Positions 10,201 to 62,830 of a DNA stretch of 64,000 bases are shown here, in pieces. Source of the DNA: Takakia lepidozioides (lineage: Eukaryota > Plantae > Bryophyta); assembly GCA_030704615.1 (NCBI GenBank), contig CM060733.1, positions 61,318,001-61,382,000 of the forward strand, written 5' to 3'. The notes beneath the pieces were generated by a model. That model was not told the origin of the DNA and did not search any database. It was given only the letters and a program-made list of their open reading frames with translations. Position 1 is the stretch's first letter, and every line of letters begins with the position of its first letter. The position numbers and the translations under genes were made by a program.

Positions 10201-10346
10201 GTGAGTCTTCCTGATTCACAATTCGAATCAGAACCTTCCGTAGAAGACACAGGAGGTGAAGGTGGCCTAAACCGCACACCTCGTCTTGTATACCCGCTAG
10301 TATCGCTAGTGCTCGTACCGGCACTTTCCCCAGCAACTAGTGGCAC
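7271..10346 (-). pseudogene. Gag (capsid-like, zinc knuckles) and aspartic protease, copy 1
   Basis: QRKPTESLREAFT, CWTCGGPHVKKDC knuckle, protease VLLDSGA; local tandem expansion of a GAALPLV-coding unit at about 8610-8810. Confidence 0.85.
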
Positions 10347-18419: not shown

Positions 18420-18639
18420 AATCCACACTACGGCGCCATAGCTAGACGCGGTGAGGCTCAACTCGAGAAAGATGAGCCCAACGCGATCTGCCGTGAAGAT
18501 AACAACGTCAGGTGCCCAAACATGTATTGACCCCTGGATTGACACTTGGGTCAATCCCAAATGTCAATATATAAAAGCTAGCTATTTCCTAGCTAACTTC
18601 ACACCAGTGGTAAAATAACTTGACACCCCCCCCCCCCAA

Positions 18640-25522: not shown

Positions 25523-27910
25523 ATGAGGCTGGGGGGTGTAACCGTCTCTGCAACTCCTAACGGTACGCTAGGGAGGGGCTTTGCTGACTTTGGGGGTATG
25601 CCAGCTGGGTTGATGGCCCCTCCGCGACCGGTGCCACCGTTGGCAATGTCCCGCCCACCTCCGAAGAATGTGTATGGGTCTTCCCCGGGCCTCTCACTTG
25701 CCCCTCCCAGTGGGCTTGAGGGACAGCGCGAAATGAGCCAAACGGCTGAGAGTGAGCAACTACAGAAAAACAAAGAGGAGGAGTATGAAAGCAGGTCAGG
25801 AAGTGACAACATGGAGGGAGCATCTGGTGATGATCAGGATCCTGATCACCCTGCACCTCGCAAGAAGAGGTATCACAGGCACACGCCGCGCCAGATACAA
25901 GAGATGGAAATGGTGTTCAAAGAGTGCCCCCACCCTGATGACAAACAGCGACAGCAGCTGAGTAAGGAGCTGGGCCTAGAACCCCGCCAGGTCAAGTTTT
26001 GGTTTCAAAACCGGAGAACCCAGATGAAGGCTCATCAAGAGCGAGCTGAGAATTCAATCCTCCGAGCTGACAATGATAAACTGCGATCAGAAAATATTAC
26101 AATGCGTGAGGCAATCAAGAATGCATCTTGTCCCCACTGCGGGGGTCCTGCGACCATGGGTGAGATGTCATTCGACGAGCAGCAACTGCGGATTGAAAAT
26201 GTGCGTTTGAAGGAGGAGCTGGATCGCGTTTCTGCTTTGGCCGCAAAGTATCTCGGTAGACCTATCGCGCCAATGGTACCTCTTACTGTTCCAAGCTCTT
26301 CTCTGGATTTGCAAGTGGGAGGGGGCAGCTTTGGCATGCATGCAGCACCTGCTGGGATGGACATTGTGCAGGGCCCGTCGGTTGCTGATGTAGCGACTCG
26401 GCCAGGTGGGCTCACGGATGCGGAGAAGCCAATGGTTGTGGAGCTGGCTGTCACAGCTATGGAAGAGTTGGTGCGCATGGCTCAAGCTGAAGATCCTCTG
26501 TGGATAGTCAGCCCTGACGCTCCCAAAGAACAGCTGAACTATGATGAGTACTTGCGCCAGTTTCCACGAGGGATTGGTAGCCGACCTCACGGGCTGAAGA
26601 CGGAGGCCACGCGGGAGACGGGGTTGGTGATGATGAATGGAGTGAATTTGGTGGAGACACTAATGGACGCCGGGCGCTGGATGGAAATGTTTCCTTGCAT
26701 CGTATCTCGAGCTCTGACTGTTGATGTCCTCTCCCCGGGAGTGACTGGGAATCGCAACGGTGCTTTGCAGCTTATGTATGCAGAGCTCCAGGTGTTGTCT
26801 CCGTTGGTACCCACGCGCGAGATTTACTTCCTTCGCTACTGCAAGCAGCATGCCGAGGGCGTGTGGGCTGTGGTCGATGTGTCTGTGGATAGCCTCCGAG
26901 ACAATCCTCCACCATCTTTGATGCGCTGCAGAAGGCGTCCTTCAGGCATGCTGATCCAGGAGACCCCAAACGGATACTCTAAAATAACAGAAGTGGAACA
27001 CATGGAGTATGATGATCGCGCTGTCCACGGCATGTATCGAGCTCTGGTCAACACAGGCATGGCATTTGGTGCGCAACGGTGGGTGGCTACTCTTCAGCGC
27101 CAGTGTGAGCGCCTGGCCAGTTTCAGTACTACCACTAGAGATCTGGGTGGGGTGCCAAGTGCCAATGGGCGGCGCAGCATGCTGAAACTGGCTCAGCGCA
27201 TGACTAATAATTTCTGTGCGGGTGTGAGCGCTTCGACTGTCCATACCTGGACAACGCTCTCTGGAAGTGGTGAAGATGACGTGCGTGTGATGACTCGCAA
27301 GAGTGTGGACAACCCGGGTGAGCCTCATGGCATCGTTCTGAGTGCTGCCACCTCTATGTGGCTCCCAGTACCTCCTCAACGTGTTTTTGAGTTTCTGAGG
27401 GACGAGCGATTGCGGAGTGAGTGGGACATCCTGTCGAATGGAGGGCTAGTGGCTGAAATGGCACACATTGCCAAAGGACAAGATCATGGGAACAGTGTAT
27501 CACTTTTGCGGGTGAATGCTATGAACGCAAGCCAGAGCAACATGCTCATTCTTCAAGAAAGCTGCACCGATGTGGCTGGTTCACTGGTTATCTATGCGCC
27601 TGTTGACATTCCAGCCATGAACCTTGTGTTGCAGGGCAGTGATCCTGACTATGTAGCTCTCCTACCCTCAGGGTTCGCAATCCTTCCAGATGGTCCAGAG
27701 AACCGAAGGTCCATGGGTGTTCAACATGAGAGTGGACAATTTGGAGATAGCCCGCACAGAGGTGGATCTCTGCTGACAGTAGCTTTTCAGATACTGGTGA
27801 GCAGTATACCATCAGCCAGGCTTTCTCTCGAGTCTGTGGCAACTGTGAACAATCTCATATCCTGCACGGTACAGCGCATCAAGTCTGCTCTACAGTGCGA
27901 GAGCGCCTAA
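25523..27910 (+). CDS. Class IV HD-ZIP transcription factor (homeodomain, zipper-loop-zipper, START, SAD; ATML1/PDF2/HDG family)
   Basis: Uninterrupted 795-aa ORF: RKKRYHRHT...[21 protein letters not shown] zipper loop, START ([16 protein letters not shown]), C-terminal [12 protein letters not shown] and [12 protein letters not shown]. Confidence 0.97.
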
Positions 27911-37182: not shown

Positions 37183-38148
37183 TGTCGTGCGTATACATAT
37201 CGCTACACAACTACATCGTTGTCCAAAACCACACAACACATGTGCACGCCATACACTAGTATACCACTAGTCCACCACTAGTCCAGCCACTAGTCCAACC
37301 ACTAGGCTACAACTAGTCAGTCACTAGGCTGCCACTATGCTGCCCATTATGGCAGTCACTAGTCCACACAATGATAAAGAAGAAGAATACAATCACAAGC
37401 TCATGCGAGCTCACAAAGCTGAAGCATAAACTCATGCATATATAAACTCATCACTCAAATATAAGTCAAGCCAAGTGCACCCCATGCCATGGGGAATCCA
37501 CACTACGGCGCCATAGCTAGGCGCGGTGAGGCTCAACTCGAGAAAGATGAGCCTCCCCCGTTTGCCGTGAAGATAACCATTCCAGGGCCTAAATCTGCCT
37601 TGACCCCTGGATTGATACTTGGGCCAATCCCAAATGTCAATATGGAAAAGCTAGCTATTTCCTAGCTAGTTTCACACTAGTGGTAAAATAACTTGACAGC
37701 TGTCGTGCGCATACATATCACTACACAACTACATCGCTGTCCAAAACCACACAACACATGTGCATGCCACACACTAGTATACCACTAGTCCACCACTAGT
37801 CCAGCCACTAGTCCAACCACTAGGCTACAACTAGTCAGTCACTAGGCTGCCACTATGCTGCCCACTATGGCAGTCACTAGTCCACACAATCGCCCCCCTA
37901 GCTGGTGCTTAGGTCCCTCTAAGTCCTGGTAGCCACAAGATGTGATAGTGACCATAGCCTCACTATGTCCTCCACCACTGTCTCTACTAAACTCAAACTC
38001 GATAGATCAAGAGGTCGGGTGCAAGAGTTGCCCCATCGTTAGTCGCCGTCTTGCAAACTGTGAACTTGAGCCTATGATCTCGTATATTGACTCCTATGAG
38101 CTTGGCCTCCCATGTCTTGTTAGCTGCCTCTAGTCATGTCCATTGCCA

Positions 38149-42887: not shown

Positions 42888-43622
42888 TGTCGCGGCCCTT
42901 TGCCTTGAGGGAAGGGGTCTCGGGACACACGAGGGGCTGCCCCTGTGGTGGGGGCAGCGGCAGCGATAGGTACGGGGGGGGGGGGGGGGCTGAAGCACCC
43001 TTGATTGCCCAAGGCACTCAGGGAAGCGGAGGCGCTCACTAGGTGGAGCCCCGCACACCGGGTTGCGGTGGGGGTGGCTCCACAAGGGGTGGGGGTAGCT
43101 TAGCGGGATTTAGTGGGGGTGGCATAGGACTCACCATGGGGGCGGAGACCTCGTGGTGGGAGTCGTGGGGAGTCTTGGGACTCATCACGGTCCATAGGGG
43201 CCGTGGTGAGTGGGCCAAGACTCACCGCGACTCATCACCGGGAGTCGAGGGCGTTCATGGTGGTTCGCCATAAAATGGCATGGCTGGTTGTGAAACCCCC
43301 GCAGACAGCTACAGAAGTATATATAAGGGGAGTAGTGACCCCGAGAATGGTGCAAGCCCGTTGGTGACCAAAACTAGTGAGTAAGCGAGCGAGCCGGAAA
43401 GCGACCAAAGAGTGGGAGCTGTTCCGGACTGCCATCTACCAAAGGGAATTCTCCTAGTCCCAAATAGGTGGAGGGTTTAGAGGGAAGCGAAGGGGACCGT
43501 TATGTCCCGGTGAGCAGCCGAAGCTCCAAGTTGGCCCGGCGGCCAGGTTGGGAGTCAGGCGCGCGCATCAAAGCGAGTAACTATGACTTGAAGGGGAGCT
43601 TACCGAAGTGAGGTGCGCGACA
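42888..43622 (+). repeat. Chromovirus 5' LTR
   Basis: tgtcgcggccc...gtgcgcgaca; near-identical to 49267-50003. Confidence 0.95.
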
Positions 43623-45986
43623 CTTGGTATCAGAGCTTAGAGTTCAGTACGCGATCGTCCTTAGGATTGGCCTCATCATGGGGTCAGGCAAGCCAAAGCG
43701 AAAGCGGAACGGCCCAAAAGATGATGATCCTGGTGAGCCCGATGGGGCGAAGTGTCACCGAAGCGGCCGTTTGAGGACGCGACGCAGGTTTCTGAAAGCG
43801 AGGCCGCTCAAAAGCGGGAGGAATCCGAGGAGTCGGAGCCCGAGGAATCCGTGAGAGCTTCGACCGACCAACAGATGCCTCCCATGCCGGCAGCCTTTTG
43901 GGAAGGGTTGTTGGCGCAATTTGGCGGGACGTTGAAGACGTGTTGAAGGCGGCTAATGCCACTTCCACTAAGGCAAAGTTTAAGGTGAAGCCTAAGGAAC
44001 CCGGCACCTTTGAGGGCGTCCAAAATCGGAAGGCACTCAACACCTAGCTCCTGGAGCTAGAGCAGTACTTCTCCGGGCGGCCAAGTTGAGTGACGAGGAT
44101 CGGTGGAAGTGGCTCCCACCTATTTGAGGGCTATGCTCAACAATGGTGGCAGAAATGCCTTCACGACCGAGGTCCAAGCCCGGAAACCTTGAACTGGAGT
44201 GGGTTCAAGGAATTGATGAAGAGACAGTTTGTGCCCCTCAACGCGTCCTGGCTTGCCCGGGACAAGATGAGGAATTTGAAGCAAACAGATGACATTCGGA
44301 TGTATGTCCAGGCTTTCAATGTGCTGTTGCTCGAAGTCGCGGACATGGCAGAACCAGAAATGGTCTTCAACTTTGTGGCGGGACTGGCCCCATGGGCCAG
44401 GCGGAAGTTGGAGGAGAAGCCACCCAAGACTTTGAACGAGGCAATTGAGAGGGCTGAATGTTTCTCGGATGTCCCTAGGGGTGAGAGACAAGGCCGTACG
44501 GAGCTGAACCACAAGAAGACCCGGCGGGAAGGTGACTCCTCCCGACCGGAAAAGAAGTGGGATAGGCCACGCGGCGACAATGGCACGTGGAAATCGAAGG
44601 GAGGGCCTTCACCCGTCAAGGCGGCACCCGGTCTTTGAAAGGAAAAGCGGGTGGAGCGGCTTATGGCGGACAGAAGGTGACCTTTGATGGAGTGTGTTTC
44701 AATTGGTGGGAGCCCGGGCACATGGCAAGAAGTGCACAAAACCTCGACAATTGAACATGACTCGGGCAACCACGGAGCTGTCGGAAGATACCATCAGTCG
44801 CTTGGTGGAAGCGGTGGTCGCCAGGACTTGCAAGGTAGGCAACTATTCTTGTGAGTTGTATCAGGAAACTGGCGCCCTGCGTAAAGGGAGTCAGTTATTG
44901 TTCGTGGATGGGATAATATCCGGAACTAACGTGTCGTTGTTGGTGGACATAGGAGCGTCGCACTCCTTCATGACGCCGGCGGCGGCGCGAAAGTTGGGAC
45001 TCTACTCCCGACAAGTGACGTGGGGGCCTCTATTGAGGTGCGTTCTGCCAAGGAGAACCACAGTTTGCAACAAGGTTGGCGTTTGATGTCCCTCTTCAAC
45101 TGGGGAGTTGGGAGGGACGTGAGAACTTCACCATCTGCGAGATCGATGGAGAGGGCGAATAAACCTTCTGTCAGCAAAGGAGTGGGCCGTGGAGGAGGCA
45201 CACGAGCCCCAATTTTTGCTTTACATTAGAGAAGTAAAAGGAGAAGGCGATGGGGAGCCGAGCCCAGATTGGATCAAGGGGATTTTGGAGAAATACCAGG
45301 ATGTGATGTCGGAGGATTTACCAAGCGGCTTGCCACCGCGAAGAGGAGTTGACCACAAGATTGAGGTGATACCGGGATCGAAACCGCCTGCCAAGGCGCC
45401 CTACCGGTTTGAGCCACAGAGAGTTGGTCGAGCTGAAGACTCAGCTCAAGGATCTAATGTCAAAGGGGTACATCAGGCCGAGTAAGTCACCTTACGGAGC
45501 CCCGGTGCTATTTGCAGACAAGAAGGATGGGACGCTGCGGATGTGTGTTGATTACAAGGCTCTGAATAAGGTGACTATAAAAAACCGGTACCCTTTGCCA
45601 AGGATCGACGACCTCTTCGATCAGTTGGCAGGAGCGAAGTATTTCAGCCGGATCGACTTGCGCTCCGGCTATCACCAAATTCGGGTGGCGGAAGGAGATG
45701 AGGAGAAGACCGCGTGCAGGACAAGGTATGGTTCATATGAGTTCTTGGTGATGCCTTTTGGGCTCACCAATGCACCAGCGACATTTAGCACGCTGATGAA
45801 CAACCTTTTCCAGGAGTGGTTGGATGACTTGTGATCGTGTACATCGATGACATCTTGGTGTACTTGAAAACAAAGGAGGAGCACCTGGAGCACCTGAAAA
45901 GGGTGTTCCAAAAATTGCGAGAAGGGAAGCTGTATGCCAAAGCTTCAAAGTGCGAATTTGGGGTCACAAAAGTGGAGTTCCTGGGG

Positions 45987-46382
45987 GGAGAGAGGGAGAG
46001 AGTGGGAGAGATGAGGGAAGAAAAATAAAAAAGAAGGTTGGGGGGGGGGAGTGACTCAGCAGCTGCTGCTGCTCAGTCACTTCCCCCCCTCCACCTTTTC
46101 GTTTTTTGTTTGTGGAATGGTGGGGGGTGCTGAAAGCAGCTTGCTGCTGCTGGTCTTAGCCCCCCCCCCCCCCCCCGACCTTCATTTTTTGGTTTTGGCA
46201 ATGGTGGGGGCCACTGAGAGGGTGCCTGCTGCTACTCTCAGTCCCCCATTTTTATTTTTTTATTTTTTTTGAATGGTGGGGGGCTGACAACAGCAACAAG
46301 TGCTGGTGCTCTCATCACCCCCCCCCCCCCCCCCCCCCCTCTTTTCATTTTTTTGCTATCAGCAGAGAGAGAAAGGGGGAGA
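45987..46382. repeat. Array of G-run/C-run hairpin units inside the chromovirus pol gene
   Basis: Four degenerate units such as gggagtgactcagcagctgctgctgctcagtcacttccc; same motif at 3010-3128. Confidence 0.7.
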
Positions 46383-49266
46383 CCTCCTATTACCGGAAGT
46401 ATGTGAGAAATTTCGCCAAGATTGCGGGGCCGCTGTCAGACCTTCTGGTAAATCAAGCTGGGCATGGAACACCTTTTGGGCCAAGCTTTTGCTGAATTGA
46501 AGGCAGCGGATGACGGAAGCTCCAGTCTTGAAAATCCGGAGTTCGATCGTCCGTTCGAGATTCATACAGATGCGTCGTACTTCGCGATTGGGGGTGTACT
46601 GATGCAAGATGGGACGTCCAGTGGCTTACGAAAGTAAGAAATTGAATGAAGTGGAGCGACGGTGGCCGACGCACGAGAGAGATGAAGGCGGTGGTGCATT
46701 GTCTTGAGCTTTGGCGCCACTATGTTGGTTCCAACCCAGTGAAGGTGTTCACGGACAATGCCACGGTGAAGTATTTTGCCACGCAGACCAAGTTGTCCCC
46801 AAAACAACTTAGGTGGCAAGATACTTTGGCGGTGTTTGACGTGGATATCCAGTACAAACCAGGACGAGACAACGTGGTGGCCGATGCTTTATAGAAACAA
46901 CGGCTCTTGTTGGTGTACAAGGGCGAGACGGCGCTCCAAGGAAGATCCGGAAGGCTTGCCGGAAGGATGAACTGGCAAAGTCCCGCGATCAGGACTTGAG
47001 GATGGGGGGTAAATCGCAATTCCACTTGCAAAATGACTGCTCCGTATAAGCAAAAACGTCTCTATGTGCCGAAGGGAGGGATCAGAGATAGCCTCTTGAA
47101 AGAATGCCATGATAGCCCGCTTGCGGGCCACGGCGGAGCCAAGCGCACTGCGTCACTCTTGAAGAAAGAGTATTTCTGGCCCAAACTGAGGGAGGAGGCC
47201 GAGGAGTAATGTCAAGACAGCACCACAATGCCAACAAAACCGAGCGAGTACAAAAGCAAGCGGGTCTGTTACAACCCTTGCCCTTCCAGAGGGGACTTGA
47301 GAAAGCGTCTCGATGGATTTCATGACTGCTATGCCGCTGTCAAAAGGATTCGATGCAATCATGGTGGTGGTGGATAGGTTCAGTAAAATGCGCCATTTCA
47401 TCCCCACCAAGGAGACGGCAACGGCGCAGGAGACAGGGCGACTTTACTTCACCACCCCCGTCTTAAAACATCATGGAGTCCCGAAGGATATTGTCTTGGA
47501 CCGCGATCCAAAGTTTACGAGTAAATTTTGGGGGCACTTTGGAAGAAGATGGGGACGAGCTGAAGATGAGCCCGCCTCCGACTACCCCCGATTGGCCAAA
47601 CAGAAAGGGTGAATTCCGTAGTGAAGCAGATCTTGCGAATTACGTGTCGGCAGACCAAACAGACTGGTGGAACACTTAGACGCGGCAGAGTTCTGTTATA
47701 ATAACACAGAACACTCCGCAAACGGAGTTTCCCCTTTCGTATTGGTCTATGGAAAAGCACCTCTGGTGCCGACAAGTTGGGCCGCCCAGGACGTTGAGGA
47801 ACCGGCAGTAGCGGGGTAACTGGAAGAACGCGAGCGTTTGTTGAAGCTCGCAAGTACAATATTGCCAAAGCTAGGAAACGGTATGAAAGGCAGGCGAATC
47901 AGAAGCGGAGGGAAGTGAAGTTTTGGGCAGGCACAGAGTCTGGTTGAACATCAAGAATTTTCCGACTACCTCCGGAAGTGAGTCCGAATTCGTACCTCCG
48001 TATGCGGGACCCTTTCGCATTCGGAAGGTTATGAATGAGGATGTGTATGAATGGAGCTGCCGGCAAACAGCAAGGTGCACCCAGTATTCCATGTCTCCCT
48101 TTTGAAGCCTTACTTCAAAGATGAAGCGCGTCCGAATCGGCATCAAGTGTGCGTCCGCCACCTATGCTGTTGGATCATGAAAATGAACCTGAGTACGAGG
48201 TGGAGGCAATACTTAAGTCGAGAGAGGTTCAGGAACCGGAAAAACGGAGTATCTCGTCAAATGGAAGGGTTATCATCATGTGGAGGCATCTTGGGTGCGT
48301 GCCTCAGAATGGGAAACGCATCAGGCGGTTGCAGCTTTCGAAGGCGACCTCAAAAGCGGAAGAAGCGTTGATGGGGACATCACCTTGGAGCGTGGGGGAG
48401 GAAATGCATGCTTAGCCCGGCTTAGCTAGCTTAGGAATCCGATTACAAAACTTGTATTGTACAAAAATTTGTTATAAAGGAAATGGGTTCCAATGTTGTG
48501 CGTCCTATTTTGTTTGGAATGGTGATGCATGATATGGTTGGCTAGTGTGTAGAATGCATGCTATCTTAAAAGTGGGAGAGGTAAATTGGGTTAATCATGT
48601 GTTTGCGTAGTGCCGAAATCGGGTGACCCCCATCCAAGGGGCAAGGAAACTTGCGACTTCTTGGGAGTTCACGTGCTAGTGCGCACCTGGCGCGTGCGCG
48701 TACTATAACTGCGCTACCGAGGGGGTTGCCTTGTAGTGCAGGCTAACGCGGAAGCTACGTGCTTCCGTTCACATACTATAATCGTGTAGCCTCGGGACGA
48801 AGTCGTAGTGCGGCTTCGGCGTGTTCCCGTACCTCAGGCCAGCATTCCAAGGCGGACCCAATTGTGTGATTGGGCGCACGGTTGGTTCAAGGTTATCTTC
48901 CTAGTCAAGAGGGTTCCAGGGAACCCTTGCTCAAGGTGATGCCAAAGCGGCATCATGAGCGATCGCAAGCAATGTTGTTGCAGTAAGGCGATTCGATCCT
49001 CGGGGAGGATCGTTCCTTGGCCTTGAAGTAGGCCAAGAAGAGTGCACTGGGAGGAGCTGGAGAGGCTCCACCCTTGGCCGGGACTTGGAGGAAGTCGGCC
49101 GAACTAGCTAGTGGAGAGTAGAGTCAAGTGTGGGGTTTGGTTCTTTGCCATGGGACGCCATGGTACGGAAACAAACTCCTTGATGTGGGACGCCACAACT
49201 TGATGTTCGTTTCTACAAAATGGACAAGTCGATGAGGACATCGACTCCCTGTTGGTAGGGGTGGTG

Positions 49267-50003
49267 TGTCGCGGCCCTTTGCCTTGAGGGCAGGGGGGTC
49301 AGGACACACGAGGGGCTGCCCCTGTGGTGGGGGCAGCGGCAGCAATATGTATGGGGGGGGGGGGGGGGGCTGAAGCACCCTTGAGTGCCCAAGCACTCAG
49401 GGAAGCGGAGGCGCTCACTAGGTGGAGCCCCGCACACCGGGTTGCGGTGGGGGTGGCTCCACAAGGGGTGGGGGTAGCTTAGCGGGATTTAGTGGGGGTG
49501 GCATAGGACTCACCATGGGGGCGGAGACCTCGTGTGGGAGTCGTGGGAGTCTTGGGACTCATCACGGTCCATAGGGGCCGTGGTGAGTGGGCCAAGACTC
49601 ACCGCGACTCATCACCGGGAGTCGAGGGTGTTCGTGGTGGTTCGCCATAAAATGGCATGGCTGGTTGTGAAACCCCCGCGGACAGCTACAGAAGTATATA
49701 TAAGGGGAGTAGTGACCCCGAGAACGGTGCAAGCCCGTTGGTGATCAAAAACTAGTGAGTAAGCGAGCGAGCCAGAAAGCGACCAAAGAGTGGGGAGCTG
49801 TTCCGGACTGCCATCTACCAAAGGGAATTCTCCTAGTCCCAAATAGGTGGAGGGTTTAGAGGGAGGCGAAGGGGGACCATTATGTCCCGGTGAGCAGCCG
49901 AAGCTCCAAGTTGGCCCGGGCGGCCAGGTTGGGAGTCAGGCGCGCGCATCAACGCGAGTAACTATGACTTGAAGGGGAGCTTACCGAAGTGAGGTGCGCG
50001 ACA
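49267..50003 (+). repeat. Chromovirus 3' LTR
   Basis: Direct repeat of 42888-43622, followed by TSD TAGCT. Confidence 0.95.
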
Positions 50004-50099
50004 TAGCTGGCAGCTCCATCAACCTGGTAGCTGTAGCTTGTCATGGTGCCACCGTGGCAGTCTTGACCATCAAATCTTACGATCCCTCCGGCACTACAC

Positions 50100-50425
50100 T
50101 GTCAAGTTATTTTACCACTAGTGTGAAACTAGCTAGGAAATAGCTAGCTTTTACATATTGACATTTGGGATTGGCCCAAGTGTCAATCCAGGGGTCAAGG
50201 CAGATTTAGGCCCTGGAGTGGTTATCTTCACGGCAAGCGCGGGAGGCTCATCTTTCTCGAGTTGAGCCTCACCGCGCCTAGCTATGGCGCCGTAGTGTGG
50301 ATTCCCCATGGCGTGGGGTGCACTTGGCTTGACTTGTATTTGAGTGATGAGGTTATATATGCATGAGTTTATGCTTCAGCTTTGTGAGCTCGCATGAGCT
50401 TGTGCTTGTATTCTTCTTCTTTATC
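50100..50425 (+). repeat. Repeat A1 of copy 3
   Basis: Matches 60349-60671 apart from 2 substitutions and 3 one-base homopolymer indels (by eye). Confidence 0.95.
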
Positions 50426-50442
50426 ACTCGAGAAAGATGAGC
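50426..50442 (+). promoter_or_regulatory. Putative self-priming primer-binding site
   Basis: ACTCGAGAAAGATGAGC is the exact reverse complement of 50246-50262 inside A; there is no TGG-type tRNA PBS here. Confidence 0.7.
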
Positions 50443-51949
50443 TCGTATCTATGAGTGCTAGATACGAGTTAGTTGTAGCACTTGTGGTTTTTGCTTGAGA
50501 ATGAGAGAAACCAAGTTGTTATGCAAGGAGCACCGTGGAGCTCTTGGTTGTTAGAAGCGGAGGCGATGTGGGTTACGAGGTGGTAAACCTTGGCATTCGA
50601 TCTTCAGCTTCAGAGATGAAAGCACCATACTGTAGGTAATTCCAGAGCACCTTGATGGTTTCAGATTGTGTACATGCATGAGCAAGCACGATTGGGAAGA
50701 GGACCAGTCAAGAGCAGGTTATATGTGGCTTTGGTGGCAAAGCTGAGAACTGGACTTGGGAATGCGAGCTGTCATTTGTGAAGGATTGCAAGACCAAGCG
50801 AAAGGGCTGATTTGGCTTGGGGCAAATCAGTGCACTTTGTGGAGTATGGTGAGATTGGGTTTCAATCTCGAGCTTCAGCATTGAGAGGGCTCTTGTCATG
50901 GCGAGAGCAGGGCTGGAACAGGAGCTAAGAGGTGCGGCAAGGCCATGGAATGTGCACCTAGGGTTACAGAGCTTGGAAAGAGCTCTTGCACCACAAGAGA
51001 AGTGTCTTATGGCTGGAAATGTAAGCCTTAGGGTTTCAGGAGCTTGGCAAAGGCTATGGAGTGCTTAGTCTTGTCTTAGAGAGCATCAAGGAGCCAAGGA
51101 GCCAAGATAGGGGCTGATATCTCTTGTGTGAAGAGGTTGCATGTGTGGAGCATGTATTCAGCTCATTGAAGCTTCCATCTTCAAGCTTGGAGGGCAAGCA
51201 AGGAAGAGGGAAGGGCTGACTTCCCTTATGTGAGGGCAATGCATGTGTGGAGCATGCTATCAGCCTGGTGAAGGCTTGCACTTTCAGGTGTGGGAGTGCA
51301 AGAAAGGAAGGAAGGGGCTGTTTCCCCTGTAGGGCATGTGGAGCATGCTTTCAGCATGCTGAAGCTTGTATTTTCAGGTTTGTGGGTGCAAGAAATGAGC
51401 AAAGGAGCTGATTCTTTTATGGTGAGAGTGGGGCATGTGTGGAGCATGCCTTCAGCCCATTGAGGCTCTTGTTTTCAAGCTTTAGAGAGCTAGAACGGAA
51501 GGTCTAGGGCTGGTTTCCACTTGGAGTGAAAGAAAAAGCACTTGTAGGGCCTATGTGAGTTGGGGTTTCAACTTCAAGCTTGAAGGGAGCGCAACTCTTG
51601 AAGCAGCAGGTGTAGGGGGCTGGAAGAGGCTCTAAGACAGATGCTATGGCCAAGGAGAGTGCTTGAATGAGTGCTCACAAGGGCTGGGAACCAGCAGGGC
51701 TTGGTTTTTTGCCATTGAGTTTAGTGGCGTGTTTGGGTAGGCTAAGTGGAAAGAAGGCTTGGTTTGTGGCACCACCTCATGGCTTAGGGCTACTATGGTG
51801 GTGTGGGGAGCCGAAAGAGCAAGGATACCTTGCTGATTTCCTCACAGCCACCATAGCTCGGTGGAAAGAAGCCTAGAGTCCAAGAGACACAACCCTAGCT
51901 TGGCGTGGCTAAACCCCTTGGAGAAATGGCTAAACTGCCAGAGCGGCCA

Positions 51950-52335
51950 TGTGTGGGCTGTGTCAGGCTGTGGCGAGCTGTGACGGGCTGTGACGGGCTG
52001 TGGCAAGCTGTGACAAGGCTGTGATGGCTGTGACAAGGCTGTGCCATGTGCCCTGTGGGGCTGTGACGGGCTGTGCAGGCTTGTGACAGGCTGTGCCCAG
52101 TGGCCTTTTGGGGGCTGTGACGGGCTGTGCGTGGCTGTGACAGGCTGTGCCCTGAGGCCTGTGGGGCTGTGCGGGCTGTGACAAAGGCTGTGCCCTGGCC
52201 TTTGGTGGCGCTGTGACAGGCCGTGCCTGAGGCCTTTGAGGCTGTGACGAGCTGTGAGGGGCTGTGACAGGCTGTGCCCAGTGGCCTGTGGGACGTGACG
52301 GCTGTGCCAGTGAGCTTTGGTGGGCCTGTGCCTGG
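51950..52335. repeat. About 10-bp gctgtgacgg minisatellite in the 5' leader of copy 3
   Basis: Tandem ggctgtgac units; counterpart in copy 2 at about 63610-63757. Confidence 0.85.
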
Positions 52336-52691
52336 TCTGTGGTGGCCCGTGTTGACCTTGGAGGCCTGTGCTGACTCGTGGAGGCACTGGTGGACTAAGA
52401 CTTGGCATGTGGTCTGGAAGGCCAAATTTTGAAGCTCGTGGATGGCGGTTTGAGGAGTATCTTCAATGAATTCCATGGTCATGCAAATTCAAGGTGTAGG
52501 CTATGTTAGGAACTTAGTATTCCAAACCATAAGCCGCAACAGGTTCTCTACTACCCCTACCTTGTTACCTTGTGGAGAGGGGGTTAGGGACATGTTCATG
52601 ACCGGTTGAGTGTCAACACGGAGGTGCCACTAGTTGCTGGGGACAGTGCCGGTTCGAGCACTAGCGATACTAGTGGGTACACGAGACGGGT

Positions 52692-55300
52692 GTGCGGTTT
52701 AGGCCACCTTCACCTCCTGTGTCTTCCACGGAAGGTTCTGATTCGGATTGTGAATCAGGAGGGCTCATACCGGCGGTGCAAGTTTATTTCTTTGCCATTA
52801 TTGTGGGACACAACGGAGGAGATGTATGGAGCTACCAAGGGGCCACGAAGGTACTCTGGGCGGTGGGCACCATTGAGTTGGATGTTTTATCCAAGAGTTT
52901 GATAGTTGGTGTGATTTGCAGCAAATGCGCAATCCACAACTATTTACGCCGTTCATGGCATGGAAAGGGCTGTTTCAGCACCTTGAGGGCCGCCTATGGA
53001 TGATTACCATGAGATCAGCAGGCGGGGGCATGAGGTTGAGATCGAGGAGTGGAGGATGTACTGGTCACCCGACTATGTCTCCATCACTAGGGGCACTAGA
53101 GCCACGAGGGCAGTGGCTACACCTGCCGCTGCACCGGCAGCTTCAGCAAGCAGCAGTGGGACTGGTGGTACAGTAGCTACGACGTCCACCCAAGCCACTA
53201 CCGCACCAGCACTAGCACCCGTGCCTGCCTTCAACCCTGTTGTGGAGTTCTTCGAAGAGTTGAGAGGGAACTACCAAGGGGTGAGGACAGAGAAGTTGCG
53301 GAGCTTGCAAGAGTTCCAACGGAAGCCGACCGAGAGCTTGAGGGAGGCTTTCACTCGCATGAGGCGCTTGATAAATGTAACCCAAGGGGTTACGGAAGCT
53401 CAGGCAGTCCAATTCTGGTATGGGATATTGGACAAGGAGCTGAGGAGAAGGGTGCGGGATGCAACTCTCCTACAAGCGGCCCAACCCACCTTAGCAAATG
53501 TGTTTTTGCTGGCAGAGCGGATAGAGCTCAACATGGTGGAGGAACGAGTGGTCATGGTGGGATTTGCTAAGGAGACACCACGGGGTAGTGGTGCTCCTAG
53601 CCAACCACTACCTCAACGTGCTCAAGGCAACAAGGGGGCTCAGGTGAAGCTCAGGGAAGGGCAGAGAGGACCTCAGATGCAGGGGTCTCTCCCTTCATTT
53701 GCTGGCCAAACAACGGGCGGATGTGGTGTGCTGGACATGTGGAGGACCCCATGTCAAGAAGGATTGCCCAGAGGGAGGCAAAGGGCCGGCACATGCACAG
53801 CCTGCACAGTTGCAGTGTGGGCATTGTGGCAAGCACGGGCATGGAGAGGCCCAGTGTTATGGTTGCATCCTGAGTTGCGCCCAGGCCAGTTCCAAGGGAA
53901 CAATGGTGGCCGGGGCGAGGTGGAGCAGCCCAGAGAGGACGAGGTGGCCAGCCACGAGGTGCAGGCCAAGGGCAAGCTCAACGTGGCCAAGGACGCGGGT
54001 CAGGGTGTTGACCAAGGCATGGCCAACCGGCTCAGCAGCTAGAGCAGAGGCTCGCTGCCATGGCTACAGCTCAGGTGGTACCGGCTCTAAGGCCGGATGG
54101 TCCACCTCCTGCTCCTGAGGGAGGAGATATGGGAGGCATGGGATTCATGTGTGGAGCAGCACTACCACTAGTGCAGGTGGAGTCTGCTGCAGCCGTGACT
54201 CGAGGAGCAGCACGAGTTCCTGAGCCACGAGGTGCAGAGGTGGAGTTGGATCCACAGCGTGGGGAGGCAAGCCGTCAGGCTAGGCTTCCTCAGTCATTCA
54301 CATTGGCGGAGACAGTGTCGACGCCATCCATGGCACCTAGTTCTCGCCCGACTGTTACCGAGGCGGAGGTTACTATGCCATTGGGGAGAGCTACACGGGT
54401 AGCACCACTACCTAGTGTTGCCAAGGCTACGGCAGCTAGTGTGCTGCTAGGAGCGGCCACATCTGTGTGCCAGGCTCCATTGTTCTCGGCTACCATGATT
54501 GCGACGCCGGGGGTAAGACCAGCTGAGGTGTTCAGGCTGGCAGCTACACTCTGTGAGAGTGGGGAGGTTACTTCATCTTCTGCGGAGATAGTGGGAGGTG
54601 TAGTGCCGGAGGGATCCTCGGATTTGAGGGTCAAGACTGCCACGGCGGCGCCATGGCAAGCTGCAGCTGCCAGGTTGATGGAGCTGCCAGCTAGGCCAGC
54701 CATTGAGCGCGCCATGGTGACACCTGGAGTTGTCATGTTAGACAACCAGGATGGCATTTTCTGTTTGAGTGGACCGGCAGGCAAGAGGTACCGGCCCTGC
54801 GAGTCTTGTTGGACTCGGGAGCTCAGCCACTGATGCTGGGCAGAGCTGCTATTGCAGGCTTGGGCCTCACGGAGGCGGATATGGAGCCTTGTCCTTTCCA
54901 GATACAGACGTCTCTGGGAGGATCGGAGCAGGCTCGGGGCATGACACGGCATGAGTTGGCTATCAGACTACGGCCGGATCACCCTACAGATGGCTCAGTG
55001 ATGCGAGCCAAGGCCATTGTGACAGACGCAGTCTCATACGATGTCCTGGTTGGTGGGGCAGTGTTGTACCCCATGGGCTTCACCCTGGATTTTTGGGAGG
55101 AGTCAGCTTCCTATAGGCCTGCATGGCAGTCAGGGGAGGGCCGGCGTGTGCAGCTCCCTGTGACGTTCATAGGAGGAGTTGCGGTTGCCCAGCGAGGCAA
55201 GATGCCGACACTAGCAGCATTCACAGCGGCAGTGAGTTGGCCTAGAGAGTTGCTTGAGGGCAATGCTCATTCAGAGGATACCACCCTCCGGGAGAGCAGG
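52692..55300 (+). pseudogene. Gag and aspartic protease, copy 3 (frameshifted as given)
   Basis: QRKPTESLREAFTRM, CWTCGGPHVKKDC and CGHCGKHGHGEAQC knuckles, LDSGAQPLMLG, YDVLVGG. Confidence 0.88.
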
Positions 55301-55529
55301 ATGACATGTATGGTATGGCGGAGTTGCCTACCATGGTTGCTCAGACTCCATTGTGGGGCACGAGCAAGGATTTGCAGCGGGATGCTGATCGACGGGTGCA
55401 ACAAGCCTGGGTGGAGGCTTTTGTACCGTCAGGAGAGGAGGAGAGTGTGGGATTGCACCAGGACCACCTCAATTGTCTCCATTGGACACCACACCTATTG
55501 TGTGGCAGTATCCGGATGAAGGCATTTGT

Positions 55530-56773
55530 CTTCTGGACTTGTTTGGCGGGATCAGCACCGGATTGGCTGCTGTGTTACAGGCAGGTGTACGAGTTCGGCG
55601 TTACCTGTATGTGGAGAGGATGAGACTGCACGACGCGTTTCACTTCGCCATGTTGCTCAGTTGGTGCAGCGGTACCCTGAGTTGTTGTCGGTGTCTGCAA
55701 TTCGTGGATATCAGCAGGCCTTGCCAGCAGACATTTCGTTGCTGGGGGGGCAGGATTTGGAGCGGGTTGGCTCCATTGATCTGGTAGTGGCAGGTTGGCC
55801 CTGCCAAGGGCATTCATCAGCCGGGCATGGCAATGGATTGCGAGACTCGAGGTCGGGTCTGTTTTGGGAGATGGTGCGGGTTTTGCGCCACTTGCAGCTT
55901 CATCAAGCTGTATCTCCAGCATACATCTTGGAGAATGTGCCACTGATGGGCGATTCTCGGGCCAGGGTGATGGCCAGTGTGCATCAAGTCCGGTCGTGGC
56001 TTGGGTCAGCAGTGTTGCTAGATGCAGCTACAGTGGGGTCACGGGCTCATCGTCCACGGCTATGGTGGACTAACATGATGCCACCCGCACTGCTCAAGCG
56101 TGCATTTGATGGGGTGCAGCGGCCAGCACATCTCACAGTGGATAACATTCTGGACACAGGGAGGCAGTCTCAACGTGTGAGACACGATGACCGTTCGCCT
56201 TTGGCAGTGGTCAACAAGGTGGGTCAACCACGAGCAGCATTACCTACACTGCTCAGCTTCCCAGGATCGCATGCTTTCCGGGATAGTGGACCTGGCCTCC
56301 TGTGGGATGCTCAGTTGCAGCAGTTAGTGGAGCCTAATGCTGACGAGCGTGAGCGGGCAATGGGTTTTACCACTGGTACCACGGCGGTGTCGTCTCTTCT
56401 CTTCTGAGGCATCACGTCGTCAAGTGTTGGGGCAAGCAATGGATCTCAATTGCTTGACCTGGATTATCAGCTTGGCTCTGCTGAGCAACGCAGAGTGCGG
56501 AGTACACTTCCCTCAATGGTCTCTCTGCCTACCGAGACGGTACAGGCAGTGAGTGGGGGCGAGCATATGAGGACCACGGGGTGCATGCATCCATGGCACA
56601 CGTGGGAGGTGCTCGAGGTTCAGAGGGAGTTGGCAGCCAAGGCGGCTGTGATGGATGAGGTTGGGGATTCTTCTCGAGTTGAGGAGGTCCTCAAGGATGA
56701 GATGATGGGGCAGGATGAGGCCTTGTCATTGACTGAGCAGGTAGGGAGTACTGCTCAAGAGGTTGCAGCATAG
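55530..56773 (+). CDS. DNMT3-like C5 cytosine methyltransferase domain of the polyprotein, copy 3
   Basis: LLDLFGGISTG (55530), DLVVAGWPCQ (PCQ 55799), ENV (55931), LDAATVGSRAHRPRLWWTNM, ERERAMGF, RRQVLGQAM; one-base frameshifts near 55620 and 56400. Confidence 0.9.
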
Positions 56774-59700
56774 CAACCACGGGACGCGTCCTCTACCTCT
56801 AAGCCCACTGGACTTAAGGTTGTAGTTACGGAGGACAATTGGGAGCCTGACATTGGACCCATTGTCACCGGAGGAGAGAGAGACGTATACGGCGGTTCCT
56901 GAGGGCTTACAGGAATTGCTTTGCCTTCAGTTTGAAGGACTTGGGAGCACTGAAGGGTCAAGAGATCCGTATTGAGTTGGCCACTGACACGCCAATCTTT
57001 CGGAGACCCTATAGATACAGTGACATGGAGAGGTCTTTGATTCAGATGAGGACTCAAGATCTCTGGGAGGCAGGTTTGGTGGAGCTCTCTGGTGGAGAGT
57101 ATGCTTCAGCCACAGTGATGCCAGCCAAGAAGGATGTCTATGGCAATTGGACGGAGAGACGTATGTGCGGTGATTACCGGCCTGTAAATCGTCAGACCAA
57201 GTCCGATAAGTATGCCATGCCAACACCAGAGGAGATCTTTGATGCCATCGGGCATGCTAAGGCCTTTAGCACTTTGGATTTACGATCCGGATATCACCAG
57301 TTGCCAATCAAGGAGGCGGACAAGCAGAAGACGGCATTCTGGGGATCAATGAGCACGGCAAGGATTGCCTATATCAGTGGCGGTTCTTACCATTTGGGCT
57401 TAAGAATGCTCCTGCAGAGTTTCAGAGAGTCATGGATAGGATTCTAGCAGGGGTGGACTTTGCTCGGTGCTACATAGATGACATCATCATCTTTAGTGTT
57501 ACGATGGAGGAGCATGAGAGACACCTTCAGGTGGTATTGGAGCGCTTGAGAGCGCACGGATTGAAGTTGCATCCGGGGAAGTGCAAGTTTTTCCACAACC
57601 AGATTGAGTATCTGGGTCACATGATATATCCTGGAGGATTGGGGGTACAGCAGACTAAGGTAGAGGCCATTGCACAAATTCCACGCCCCACGGATGTGAG
57701 CCGAGTTCGAGCTTTCATGGGGTTGGCAAACTATTATAGACGGTTTGTCAAGGGATTTAGTACCATTGCAAAGGCTCTAACCAAGCTGACCAAGGTGGAC
57801 CAGGAGTGGCAGTGGGAAGATGAGCAGGAACGAGCTTTTCAAGAGCTCAAGGCGAGGTTGACCTCGGCGCCTATCTTGAGACGACCTATCAGGGGGCGTC
57901 CCTTTCAGCTGCATACGGATTGGAGCATGCTGGGGCTTGGAGCGGTGCTCACACAGGTGGATGATGAGGGAAGAGAGTTCGTAGTGGCTTACGCTAGCCG
58001 CTCGAACAACGCTGCAGAGGCTAAGTACAGCTCATATGAGGGAGAGTGCTTAGCTGCAGTGTGGGCCGTGGCACACTTCAGGTGCTATCTATACGGCAAT
58101 CTTTTCACCCTTGTCACGGATCACCAGCCACTCAAGTGGTTGATGGAGTCAGACAAGCTTACGGGGAAGCTTGCACGGTGGGCACTTATACTCCAGGAGT
58201 ATGACTTTCAGGTTGTGCATCGACCGGGTTTGGTCAATCGGGATGCGGATGGATTGAGTCGCAATCCATGCATGAGCCAGCAGGATGACACTGGAGCTCG
58301 GTGGCATGGTGAGACGGACGAGGAGATGGTGCCGGGATGGCACGCATCTGCATTTTTGTGTATCTTGGCATCGGGAGGTCAGATTGGACCTACAACAGGG
58401 ATGACTGTAGACGGAGTGTCTGAGGACCCTGAGGCTAGTGATGAGCTAGGTGGTGCCAGAGATACATGAGGATTCGGCTGTGTTGGACTACCTCCGCACG
58501 GGAGACACGGCAGCCATTGTGACTGCCAGGGAGAGGGATCGGATCCTGCAACGAGCCAAGAGGTTCAAGTGGGAGGGGATACACCTACTTCGAGTGTGGG
58601 AGGATGGTCGGGTGAGGATTGTGCCTCACCCCACACAGCGTGCACGGTTAGTGCGGCATGCCCATGAGGAGTTGGGGCATTTTGGAGTGCGACGCACTCA
58701 CAGTTTACTGCAGGGGCAGTATTGGTGGCGTGGTATGCATACAGAGGTGCAACAGTTTGTGGCTAGGTGCATGGTGTGTGACAGGGTGCGTGCTTCATTC
58801 AACGCCCTACACCACAGTTGCATCCTTTACCATCATGGGATTGGGCTACAGGTGGAGTCTTGACTTCGCAGGACCGTTGCCACTGACTATGCGCCACCAC
58901 AGATATGTGTTGGTGATGGTGGAGCACTTCTCCAAGTGGATTGAGTTGGTTCCATTGCCTGACAAGGCTAGTGAGGGGCTGCGTATGCATTCTTGGATCG
59001 TGTGCTTAGCCGATTTGGTGCTCCAGCTGAGGTACTCACGGACCAAGGAGAGAGTTCTTGGGGGAGTTTCAGGCTTTGTGTGATAAAGCCTTGATAGACC
59101 ACCGCACCACTTCTCGGGATCATCCTGAGGCCGATGGCTTAGCAGAGAGAGTTGTTCAGACGGTGAAGAGGGGTTTGCGCAAGTATGGCTTGCAGAAGGG
59201 ACACCTAGGAGATTGGGATCTTCAGGTTCCTTGGTTAGCCATGGGCTACAGGTTCAGCAAACAAGCATCACTTGCCTCCTTCTCACCATATTTCCTTCTC
59301 TTTGGCCGAGAGCCGGATTTGCCTGCAGCCATTCGTAGGGACACTGCTCAAGTCCTTAACCTTGACGATCCGGACGTGTGGGTACGTGCATGTGATCAGC
59401 GTGCAGAGTTGTTCAAGAAGTCATGCCCATGGCTTTTGAGAACCTTGCCATTGCACAGCACCGTGATACGTTGAGGTATGCCACTATACGTGGTGGAGGA
59501 TATCGTCCTGGGGTTCGGAGGTTTAGCCCTGGTGACTATGTTTATTTGCAGCAGACTGCTCCTACGACTCTGGATGTTACTGCAGGGCGTGTTATTCTGA
59601 GGGTTCGAGAGGTGTTGCCCTCAGGGGTCCTGATCTTAGAGGGTCGGGATGGCATGACTTGGAAGGACCATGTGCGTAATTGTGCGCCATGTCACCTTCC

Positions 59701-59898
59701 CAATGTCGATGGCAGAGTTGACCCAAACTTGGCAGTGGTACCTGCAGGTTTGAGGTGCATGCTCTGTGGGTCTGCCAAAGGGCAGCCACCATGCTGGTGT
59801 GTGATCGATGCTCAAGGGGTTGGCATATGGGATGCTTGACACCACCTCTTGAGAAGGTTCCTGACGGAGATTGGTTGTGTCCACACTGCTTGGGATAG
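56774..59898 (+). pseudogene. RT-RNaseH-integrase-PHD, copy 3 (frameshifted as given)
   Basis: [48 protein letters not shown] core, PHD 59756-59889, stop 59896-59898. Confidence 0.95.
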
Positions 59899-60156
59899 TG
59901 GCAGTGGACATGACTGGAGGCAGCTAACAAGACATGGGAGGCCAAGCTCATAGGAGTCAATACATGAGATCCCAAGCTCAAGTTCACAGGTTGCAAGACG
60001 GCGACTAACGATGGGGCAACTCTTGCACCCGGCCTCTTGATCTATCGAGTTTGAGTGTAGTAGGGATAGTGGTGGAGGACTTAGTGAGGCTATGGTCACT
60101 ATCACATCTTGTGGCTACCTGGACTTAGAGGGACCTAAGCACCAGCTAGGGGGGCG

Positions 60157-60861
60157 ATTGTGTGGACTAGTGACTGCCATAGTGGGCAGCGTAGTGGCAG
60201 CCTAGTGACTGACTAGTTGTAGCCTAGTGGTTGGACTAGTGGCTGGACTAGTGGTAGACTAGTGGTATACTAGTGTGTGGTGTGCACATGTGTTGTGTGG
60301 TTTTGGACAGCGATGTAGTTGTGTAGCGATATGTATGCGCACGACAGCTGTCAAGTTATTTTACCACTAGTGTGAAACTAGCTAGGAAATAGCTAGCTTT
60401 TACATATTGACATTTGGATTGGCCCAAGTGTCAATCCAGGGATCAAGGCAGATTTAGGCCCTGGAGTGGTTATCTTCACGGCAAGCGCGGGAGGCTCATC
60501 TTTCTCGAGTTGAGCCTCACCGCGCCTAGCTATGGCGCCGTAGTGTGGATTCCCATGGCGTGGGTGCACTTGGCTTGACTTGTATTTGAGTGATGAGGTT
60601 ATATATGCATGAGTTTATGCTTCAGCTTTGTGAGCTCGCATGAGCTCGTGCTTGTATTCTTCTTCTTTATCATTGTGTGGACTAGTGACTGCCATAGTGG
60701 GCAGCGTAGTGGCAGCCTAGTGACTGACTAGTTGTAGCCTAGTGGTTGGACTAATGGCTGGACTAGTGGTAGACTAGTGGTATACTAGTGTGTGGTGTGC
60801 ACATGTGTTGTGTGGTTTTGGACAGCGATGTAGTTGTGTAGCGATATGTATGCGCACGACA
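60157..60861 (+). repeat. 3' split-repeat block B1-GC-A2-B2 of copy 3
   Basis: B1 and B2 are 190 bp each with one substitution seen; junctions gaca-gc-tgtc (60343-60352) and tttatc|attgtg (60666-60677). Confidence 0.95.
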
Positions 60862-62830
60862 ACACCTCCCACTATCTCCGCAGAAGATGAAGTAACCTCC
60901 CCACTCTCACAGAGTGTAGCTGCGAGCCTGAACACCTCAGCTGGTCTTACCCCCGGTGTCACAATCATGGTAGCCATGAACAATCGAGCCTGGCACACAG
61001 ATGTGGCCGCTCCCAGCAGCACACTAGCTGCCGTAGCCTTGGTAACACTTGGTAGTGGTGCTGCCCGTGTAGCTCTCCCCAATGGCATAGTAACCTCCGC
61101 CTCGGTAACAGTCGGGCGAGAACTAGGTGCCATGGATGGAGTTGACTCTGTCTCCGCCAATGTGAATGACTGAGGAAGCCTAGCCTGACGGCTTGCCTCC
61201 CCACGCTGTGGATCCAACTCCACCTCTGCACCTCGTGGCTTAGGAACTCGTGCTGCTCCTCGAGTCACGGCTGCAGCAGACTCCACCTGCACTAGTGGTA
61301 GTGCTGCTCCCTCATGAATCCCATGCCTCCCATATCTCCTCCCTCAGGAGCATGAGGTGGACCATCCGGCCTTGGGACCGGTACCACCTGAGCTGTAGCC
61401 ATGGCAGCGAGCCTCTGCTCTAGCTGCTGAAGCCGGTTGGCCATGCCTTGGTCAATACCCTGACCTCCGCGTCCTTGACCATGTTGAGCTTGCCCTTGGC
61501 CTGCACCTTGTGCCTGGTCACCTTGTCCTCTCTGGGCTACTCCACCTCGCCTCTGGCCAGCATTGTTCCCTTGGAACTGGCCTGGGCGCAACTCAGGATG
61601 CAAACCATAACACTGGGCCTCTCCATGCCCGTGCTTGCTACAATGCCCATACTGCAACTATGCAGGCTGTGCATGTGCCGGCCCTTTGCCTCCCTCTGAG
61701 CAATCCTTCTTGACATGGGGTCCTCCACATGTCCAACACGCCACCTCCACCCGTTGTTGGCCTGCAAATGAAGGGAGAGACCCCTGCATCTGAGGTCGTC
61801 TCTGTCATTCCCTGAGCTTCACTTGAGCCCCCTTGTTGCCTTGAGCACGTTGAGGTAGTGGTTGGCTAGGAGCACCACTACCCCGTGGTGTCTCCTTAGC
61901 AAATCCCACCATGACCACTCGTTCTTCCACCATGTTGAGCTCTATCCGCTCTGCCAGCAAAAACACATTTGTTAAGGTGGGTTGGGCCGCTTGTAAGAGA
62001 GTTGCATTCCGCACCCTTCTCCTCAGCTCCTTGTCCAATATCCCATACCAGAATTGGACTGCCTGAGCCTCTGTAACCCCTTGGGTTACATTAATCAAGC
62101 GTCTCATGCGAGTGAAAGCCTCCCTCAAGCTCTCAGTAGGCTTCCGTTGGAACTCTTGCAAGCTTCGCAACTTCTCTGTCCTCACCCCTTGGTAGTTCTC
62201 TCTCAACTCTTCGAAGAACTCCACAACAGGGTTGAAGGCAGGCACGGGTACTGGTGCTGGTGCGGTAGTGGCTTGGGTGGACATCGTAGCTACGGTACCA
62301 CCAGTCCCACTAGTCCTACTGTTGCTTGCTGAAGCTGCCGGTGCAGCGGCAGATATAGCCACTGCCCTCGTGGCTCTAGTGCCCCTAGTGATGGAGACAT
62401 AGTCGGGTGACCAGTATATCCTCCACTCCTCGATCTCAACCTCATGCCCCCGCCTGAACTCATGGTAATCATCCATAGGCGGCCCCTCAAGGTGCTGAAA
62501 CAACCCCTTCCATGTCATGAAATGCGTAAATAGTTGTGGATTGCGCATTTGCTGCAAATCACACCAACATCAAACTCTTGGACAAAATCATCCATCTCGA
62601 TGGTGCCCACCGCCCCAGAGTACCTTTGTGGCCCCTTGGTAGCTCCATACATCTCCTCCATTGTGTCCCACAACAATGGCAAAGAAACAACTTGCACCGC
62701 CGGTGTGAGTCATCCTGATTCACAATCCGAATCAGAACCTTCCGTAGAAGACACAGGAGGTGAAGGTGGCCTAAACCGCACACCTCGTCTTGTGTACCCA
62801 CTAGTATCGCTAGTGCTTGAACCGGCACTA
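60862..62830 (-). pseudogene. Gag region of copy 2
   Basis: ORFs 61805..62557, 61292..61657 and 60774..61292 are colinear with gag of copies 1 and 3. Confidence 0.9.

Follow-up and report, generated by a model that had tools for sequence, protein, structure and literature searches.

A Ty3/gypsy element with split repeats, present in three copies in the 64-kb stretch of bryophyte DNA analyzed here (i.e., the window), very probably primes reverse transcription from its own RNA, without a tRNA. Self-priming had been proposed in an initial annotation of the window together with a test, covariation across families, and that test supported it; the primer binding site (PBS) changes together with its target from family to family. 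Somewhat less firmly, we favor a fuller reading of the sequence patterns, in which this split-repeat element with a PHD-bearing integrase both self-primes and integrates by cutting end-joined cDNA at a palindrome located at the B|A junction of its repeats. The element represents a little-described split-repeat Ty3 lineage in which the integration site has likely moved inside the repeat unit.

Structure of the element and its copies

Copy 3 (50100-60861, plus strand), which is inserted inside copy 2, has the layout A1-PBS...PPT-B1-GC-A2-B2, where PPT is the polypurine tract. Repeat A1 (50100-50425) starts with TG at the left end, and contigs diverge before 50100. It contains a predicted hairpin (50237-50277) around the candidate self-primer sequence (50246-50262; 13-nt core, 50250-50262), for which an RNA start near A50250 and a cut after T50262 are proposed. 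A long U5-like stem (50342-50429) adjoins the PBS (50426-50442), which has no TGG and is complementary to 50246-50262. On the right, the PPT (60148-60156; a G run before B in relatives) lies immediately 5' of repeat B1 (60157-60346), which ends with CA and is identical to B2 at 189 of 190 positions. The palindrome GACAGCTGTC (60343-60352, unstranded) spans the B1|A2 junction and is the likely integrase site. Repeat A2 (60349-60671) carries a second hairpin and primer copy (60494-60510) and matches A1 at 321 of 323 aligned positions, with 3 gaps. Repeat B2 (60672-60861) forms the right end, and contigs diverge after its terminal CA.

The coding region of copy 3 (all on the plus strand) is frameshifted throughout. 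Zinc-knuckle-like and DSGA motifs were recognized by eye in gag-like and protease-like frames (52987-55516); a Pfam search of these frames returned no match, and an intact relative (P0007) encodes an aspartyl protease at the corresponding place. Within pol lies a Dnmt3-like cytosine methyltransferase domain (55389-56404; PF00145, E value of 2.9e-13), which matched Klebsormidium protein P0052 at 45% over 233 amino acids and whose best solved-structure matches were DNMT3A. Domain searches further identified reverse transcriptase and RNase H (56851-58466), followed by a DDE integrase (H2C2 and rve) and then a PHD finger (58450-59900; the corresponding frame of copy 2 gave a PHD E value of 4.1e-10). 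Named relatives among the best 120 long proteins came from Tetrabaena, Pleodorina, Monoraphidium, Chlamydomonas eustigma, and Klebsormidium. Many PHD-integrase relatives among these 120 proteins lack the methyltransferase domain, which is thus patchy within the clade. Two degenerate tandem-repeat arrays lie between the PBS and gag (51100-52490).

Copy 1 (3129-18625, minus strand) belongs to a diverged subfamily with the same layout; its A1 is split by an insertion, its PBS lies at 12607-12623, and it is flanked on both sides by GGGG, the left one being a G run. Copy 2 (37183-64000, minus strand) has its B-A-B end at 37183-37890 and its 5' end beyond the window; two insertions, an ordinary gypsy element and copy 3, break it up. 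A1 and A2, as well as B1 and B2, are near-identical within each copy and have subfamily changes in common. Repeat B consists mostly of ACTAGT-type tandem units (60157-60346 and 3129-3866); in copy 1, B1 and B2 have unequal numbers of these units. The insertion in A1 of copy 1 (12731-18402) has short inverted ends (GGGGGTGCACTC), an approximately 9-bp duplication, and PPR-like gene fragments (14469-17459), and resembles a gene-carrying Mutator-type element. The ordinary gypsy element nested in copy 2 (42888-50003) has two 736-bp LTRs, a 5-bp duplication (TAGCT), and a tRNA-Met-type PBS. The window also contains an HD-ZIP IV gene (25481-27910) in a single unbroken frame of 809 codons, with identities of 84, 83, and 81% to Physcomitrium, Ceratodon, and Marchantia, respectively, which places the DNA in a bryophyte, likely a moss.

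The order protease-reverse transcriptase-RNase H-integrase, the TG...CA ends, a target duplication of the 4- to 6-bp class, and the PPT are all those of Ty3/gypsy elements. Equal LTRs at both ends were not found; the left end has A only and the right end has B-A-B. An ordinary LTR element, with A as the LTR and B2 as flanking DNA, was ruled out because the CA of B forms the end of all three copies and of 41 contigs. A B-A LTR with a truncated left end was ruled out because target duplications flank the start of A.

Complementarity between the PBS and repeat A

The 17 nt that follow A1 (50426-50442) are, as originally noted, the exact reverse complement of 50246-50262 (GCTCATCTTTCTCGAGT). This is the longest perfect inverted repeat in 50100-50700; none of 200 dinucleotide shuffles reached 17 nt, and the maximum was 12 nt. 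The hairpin at 50237-50277 was likewise present with the arms and the 12-nt loop (50251-50262) attributed to it; the folding program closed part of this loop with 3 extra pairs, and the 17-mer covers 5 nt of the stem plus the loop. For copy 1, it had been claimed that 13 nt covering the loop are kept and that the extension has changed. The 13 nt (12611-12623) are indeed kept, but the change in the extension amounts to one substitution, and 16 of the 17 positions still match. The same substitution (50439 G>C) occurred in 40 contigs of run X3 and in one contig of organism C, with no compensating change in the target among those shown. The conserved core is therefore the 13 nt at 50250-50262. The contigs were only aligned to the window, and summed depths were not treated as copy numbers. 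Run X8 gave no aligning contigs. In run X3, a joint leading from 50520 back to 50232, just 5' of the hairpin, had a depth of 565, several-fold above that of single joints.

The absence of a TGG-type PBS after A1 was also borne out, and the ordinary gypsy element of the same window has TGGTATCAGAGC at 43625-43636. A tRNA gene search of the window found none, an Rfam search of 49900-51200 gave no meaningful match (one chance match, E value of 0.49), and a search of viral contigs found nothing.

Covariation of the primer and PBS across families

A scan of metagenome contigs yielded 460 loci encoding a relative, of which 80 were kept. Six of them, L011 (family S), L023, L034, L037, L047, and L058, had integrase regions 70, 66, 51, 50, 45, and 44% identical to that of the window, respectively. 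Each has a distinct sequence after repeat A, 12 to 19 nt of which are complementary to a sequence 159 to 364 nt upstream; in the five more distant loci (all but L011), the end of A was inferred from the match itself. Ten segments were shuffle-tested and seven were counted. The observed match length was reached in 0 of 200 shuffles in six families (window included) and in 1 of 200 in L058. In all seven counted primers, the last base is a T that faces the initial A of the PBS. A 12-nt match in L066 that passed the shuffles was excluded from the count, as it lacks the starting A. No cis match above the shuffles was detected in L049 or in L042's own A; family T, to which L042 belongs, matches across copies, with the PBS in L042 and the target in L055 and L071. 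With a distinct PBS in each family, each matched in cis, self-priming is well supported.

The contigs of the five distant loci have PPT-B-A-PBS in a row, which may reflect assembly collapse. Two altered A1 repeats were also observed. In L042 (1975-2262), the center of the A1 hairpin reads as inverted and the match to its own PBS is lost. In L002 (1766-2074), A1 lacks the whole hairpin and primer sequence (about 30 bases) and A2 retains the hairpin.

Integration ends and the A2|B2 junction

The sequence ACAC lies on both sides of copy 3 (50096-50099 and 60862-60865) and occurs once in two homologous empty-site stretches, which proves a 4-bp target site duplication around TG 50100 and CA 60861. 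Duplications of 4 bp were found in copy 3, L002, L011, L062, L026, and L028, and L002, L011, and L062 also have the full layout. Additionally, 41 contigs of run X3 leave the element after the CA of B into unrelated flanks (agreement of 0.36). The element ends thus correspond to the CA and TG of the palindrome GACAGCTGTC, whose central GC is missing from both, as would be expected from staggered cutting that leaves 2-base overhangs. The palindrome at the B|A junction is conserved to green-algal relatives. Allowing up to 2 substitutions, the motif occurred within 2.5 kb 3' of the integrase in 23 of 59 loci (those with at least 400 bases downstream, not all independent), compared with 2 of 68 coding stretches. 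Of the 36 loci without it, many stop at the half site, and L047 has a compensatory variant, GGCAGCTGCC. The integrase half site includes a CG.

The A2|B2 junction is the joint of the PBS-defined end and the PPT-defined end. In L042 and L037, repeat A lacks a terminal CA, so the end set by priming differs from the one used by the integrase. The sequences thus suggest that integration ends differ from reverse-transcription ends, which is the larger result and was absent from the initial annotation. A cDNA end at C50425, predicted originally from a primer ending at T50262, fits the A2|B2 junction with modest support. Within the window its position is ambiguous by one base because the first bases of the PBS (A50426) and of B (A60157) are the same. 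The support comes from three irregular junctions in relatives (L002/L003, L008, and L070/L072), at which the A after repeat A is missing. The A2|B2 junctions were precise in 3 of 3 cases in the window and in 8 of 10 in family S. The other two in family S had extra bases and PPT remnants and, like L070/L072, lack the A after repeat A; in L002/L003 there is a 19-base insertion with a PPT remnant.

Insertion forms and a proposed cycle

Among 21 distinct 3' ends of family S, 8 were B-A-B, 10 were B followed by flank, and 3 were rearranged. Three of the B-only copies had a visible 5' end and are of the form A...B, with perfect 4-bp duplications in L026 and L028 and 3 of 4 matching bases in L005. 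The mirror product, A-B-A...B, was found at none of 6 intact family S 5' ends and at neither of 2 in the window.

From the complementarity, covariation, layout, ends, duplication, and palindrome described above, we infer a cycle of five steps. First, the RNA would start inside A1 near A50250, and, in the manner of Tf1, its first 13 or so bases would anneal to the PBS, with a cut after U50262. Second, minus-strand synthesis would begin opposite C50425 and plus-strand synthesis after the PPT; the resulting linear cDNA, B-A-PBS...PPT-B-A, would carry no integrase site at its ends. Third, the two cDNA ends would be joined, so that the A|B junction is made anew in each cycle. Fourth, both strands of CA^GC.TG would be cut by the integrase, which would leave the usual 2-base overhangs and insert the product with a 4-bp duplication; a cut at the site nearest the joint (i.e., the left palindrome) would give A...B-A-B, and a one-repeat circle would give A...B. 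Fifth, the intact hairpin of A2 would hide its primer sequence.

A two-repeat circle has two palindromes, so the absence of the mirror product counts against the cycle, and the rule of cutting nearest the joint is an assumption. The missing mirror form indicates that the cut is not random, and because A is the longer repeat in the families measured, the left palindrome is the nearer one. The A...B copies could also stem from recombination between B1 and B2. The A2|B2 junctions are more often precise than loose end joining suggests (3 of 3 in the window, 8 of 10 in family S), which counts against the cycle. This precision also argues for the main rival to the circle route, in which the element self-primes but no ligated circle forms. 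Reverse transcriptase at the end of A2 would jump to the other cDNA end via a single shared A and copy B, and the integrase would cut the left palindrome only. That 11 of 13 junctions are precise, that the PBS and B both start with A in the window and in family S, and that the mirror product is absent are all as expected from such a jump. We nevertheless consider it unlikely, since the 19-base insertion of L002/L003 and the lack of an A after repeat A in L008 and L070/L072 fit end joining, and since the A...B copies would still need a circle or recombination.

Which RNA segment primes

We return to the circle route and its primer. The initial annotation had the primer displayed as a hairpin loop. 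This was unsupported, as the target lies mostly in a stem arm in L011, L023, L034, and L047, and a conserved loop display was rejected because the primer has no fixed structural position across families. In folding of the window sequence, the mean primer-PBS pairing fell from 0.66 to 0.02 as upstream sequence was added; the intact hairpin thus blocks pairing. Such masking was predicted in three of the seven families (the window, L023, and L034) and was absent in L011, L037, and L047, and L058 does not fold into the primer-PBS duplex (0.01 to 0.06). In the folding models, then, the hairpin likely masks the A2 primer copy in the RNA. In uncut RNA, the U5-like stem, through its GAGT, is predicted to compete with and displace the last 4 primer bases (terminal pair probability of 0.0), compared with a terminal primer-PBS pair probability of 0.61 to 0.67 in cut RNA.

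The primer is probably the 5' end of the RNA, as in Tf1-type elements, which is likelier than a loop primer. A TATA-like box lies 26 to 31 nt before the match in family S (L011/L008), L023, and L047, and none was found at this place in the window, L034, L037, or L058. Three rearranged family S copies break at positions 169 (L057), 177 (L063), and 180 (L031) of the 338 positions of A, where the primer spans 169 to 180; L057 also breaks at positions 109 and 252. In L031, PPT-B-A2 and a primer copy are followed by inverted A to its first base, ending with CA, and A2 is altered just past position 180. Each of these breakpoints comes from a single copy, and hairpin DNA is fragile; the breakpoints are thus supporting rather than decisive, and this fragility may offer another reading of their clustering.

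Alternatively, the genomic RNA might supply the primer from its 3' end, which would be cut within the loop of A2 and fold back to pair with the PBS. L031, in which the whole 5' half of A is reverse-copied after A2 as if a long primer had stayed attached, would suit this arrangement, as would the window hairpin, which puts the primer 3' end at the loop edge. It is nonetheless quite improbable; the structural context of the primer end varies among families, the TATA spacing indicates a start at the primer, and L031 is also explained by fold-back of a short primer copy. The repeated A positions 169 to 252 of L057, which suggest RNA beyond position 180, were also counted against it.

That the pairing serves only a structural or regulatory role, with a host tRNA fragment or small RNA as the primer, is very hard to sustain. 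Seven unrelated PBSs would require seven host primers, and each PBS is matched in cis to its first base. Chlamydomonas Gypsy-7a and Gypsy-8a do appear, by eye, to pair the split layout with a TGG-type PBS; self-priming is then not required for this layout, which is the wider of the two.

Comparison with known systems

Tyrosine recombinases and a lack of target duplications characterize Ngaro, PAT, and TOC1 elements, in which the internal B|A junction is the circle junction. Their A-coding-B-A-B layout, also that of SymbioDIRS-Dnmt3 (PMC5890265), is the layout found here, whereas the present element has a DDE integrase, a 4-bp duplication, a PBS, and a PPT. A cycle of this type with a tyrosine recombinase in cis or trans is scarcely credible, since no recombinase match was found in the 46 window frames (≥90 amino acids) scanned and since the TG/CA ends, central GC loss, and 4-bp duplications are DDE signatures.

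Klebsormidium P0052, a putative counterpart of KnitGypsy-Dnmt3 of Klebsormidium nitens, has identities to the window element of 45% (methyltransferase) and 52% (integrase region). In an unrooted tree, built without Tf1, sushi, or Tcn1 references, P0052/P0112 were not sister to the family of the window, and P0082 grouped with L047. KnitGypsy-Dnmt3 is described in a figure legend as having DIRS-like repeats with gypsy domains (de Mendoza 2018, PMC5890265), and both its Dnmt3-like domain in a gypsy pol and its DIRS-like layout were found here. It differs in coming from an alga rather than a bryophyte, and the accessible parts of PMC5890265 give no priming site, target duplication, palindrome, or mechanism for it.

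Self-priming is known in Tf1/sushi elements and has been predicted for plant Tcn1 and TAR (PMC6317226), and the 5' end of the RNA serves as the primer in Tf1-type elements (bioRxiv 2022.12.06.519325, PMC4600332). As in these elements, the PBS here complements an upstream repeat, there is no tRNA site, and a stem adjoins the PBS (PMC6317226, bioRxiv 2022.12.06.519325, PMC4600332). Of the three duplexes of the Tf1 pretzel, the stem 5' of the PBS is present, and the third duplex, judged by eye, has at most 5 pairs. The Tf1/sushi-Tcn1 elements have a chromodomain where this one has a PHD finger, and here, unlike there, the repeats are split and the integration ends appear to differ from the primed ends.

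Further counterparts in layout, Gypsy-14a, Gypsy-7a, and Gypsy-8a/b_cRei, are in the Chlamydomonas repeat library of PMC9940879. Gypsy-14a_cRei starts at the TG of A and ends PPT-B-gc-A...B (PMC9940879). Gypsy-7a_cRei, with 86 new insertions in laboratory Chlamydomonas and a left LTR that lacks its last 8 bp, is treated in PMC9940879 as an LTR element with an odd end. Read by eye, the library entry before the 7b LTR, likely the 7a internal sequence, ends with the PPT, an 8-bp B, and gc; these same 8 bp also form the end of the 7a LTR. The palindrome occurs in at least 11 places of the library, most of them 45 to 65 nt from a G run (PMC9940879). Gypsy-7a and Gypsy-8a differ from the window element in their TGG-type PBS and 8-bp B, as read by eye (PMC9940879).

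An integrase cutting an internal palindrome also has a retroviral parallel, as HIV integrase cleaves the palindromic junction of 2-LTR circles in vitro (PMC1905944). In the retroviral case, this is a side reaction where the two cDNA ends meet, whereas here the palindrome is separate, inherited, and apparently the only integration site.

The repeat layout was therefore already known (KnitGypsy-Dnmt3 and the Chlamydomonas library, including the active Gypsy-7a), and the mechanism was not found in print. The literature searched, with subscription papers, Repbase reports, and one thesis outside reach, contained no description of the internal integration site or the cycle, and the available part of a 2026 preprint on adenine methyltransferases had nothing on the priming site or cycle.

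Significance

The results extend self-priming to a PHD-bearing lineage. We lean slightly toward a broader view, in which a green-lineage clade from Chlamydomonas to mosses has its integrase site moved from the cDNA ends to an internal CA-GC-TG palindrome, circles would be the obligate substrate, the DIRS/Ngaro layout would have been reached convergently with a DDE enzyme, and most families would self-prime. The layout defeats LTR finders that require two equal LTRs, so structure-based surveys such as REXdb, which was built with LTR-FINDER, may lack an abundant class of non-seed plant elements. Gypsy-7a_cRei, a putative relative, appears to have the same junction and is active in laboratory Chlamydomonas, which makes the cycle directly testable. 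Circles are dead ends for retroviruses and other LTR elements, and retrovirologists have long asked whether they are genuine precursors for a DDE integrase. If the proposed cycle is true, this clade would be a natural case of a DDE integrase with circle precursors.
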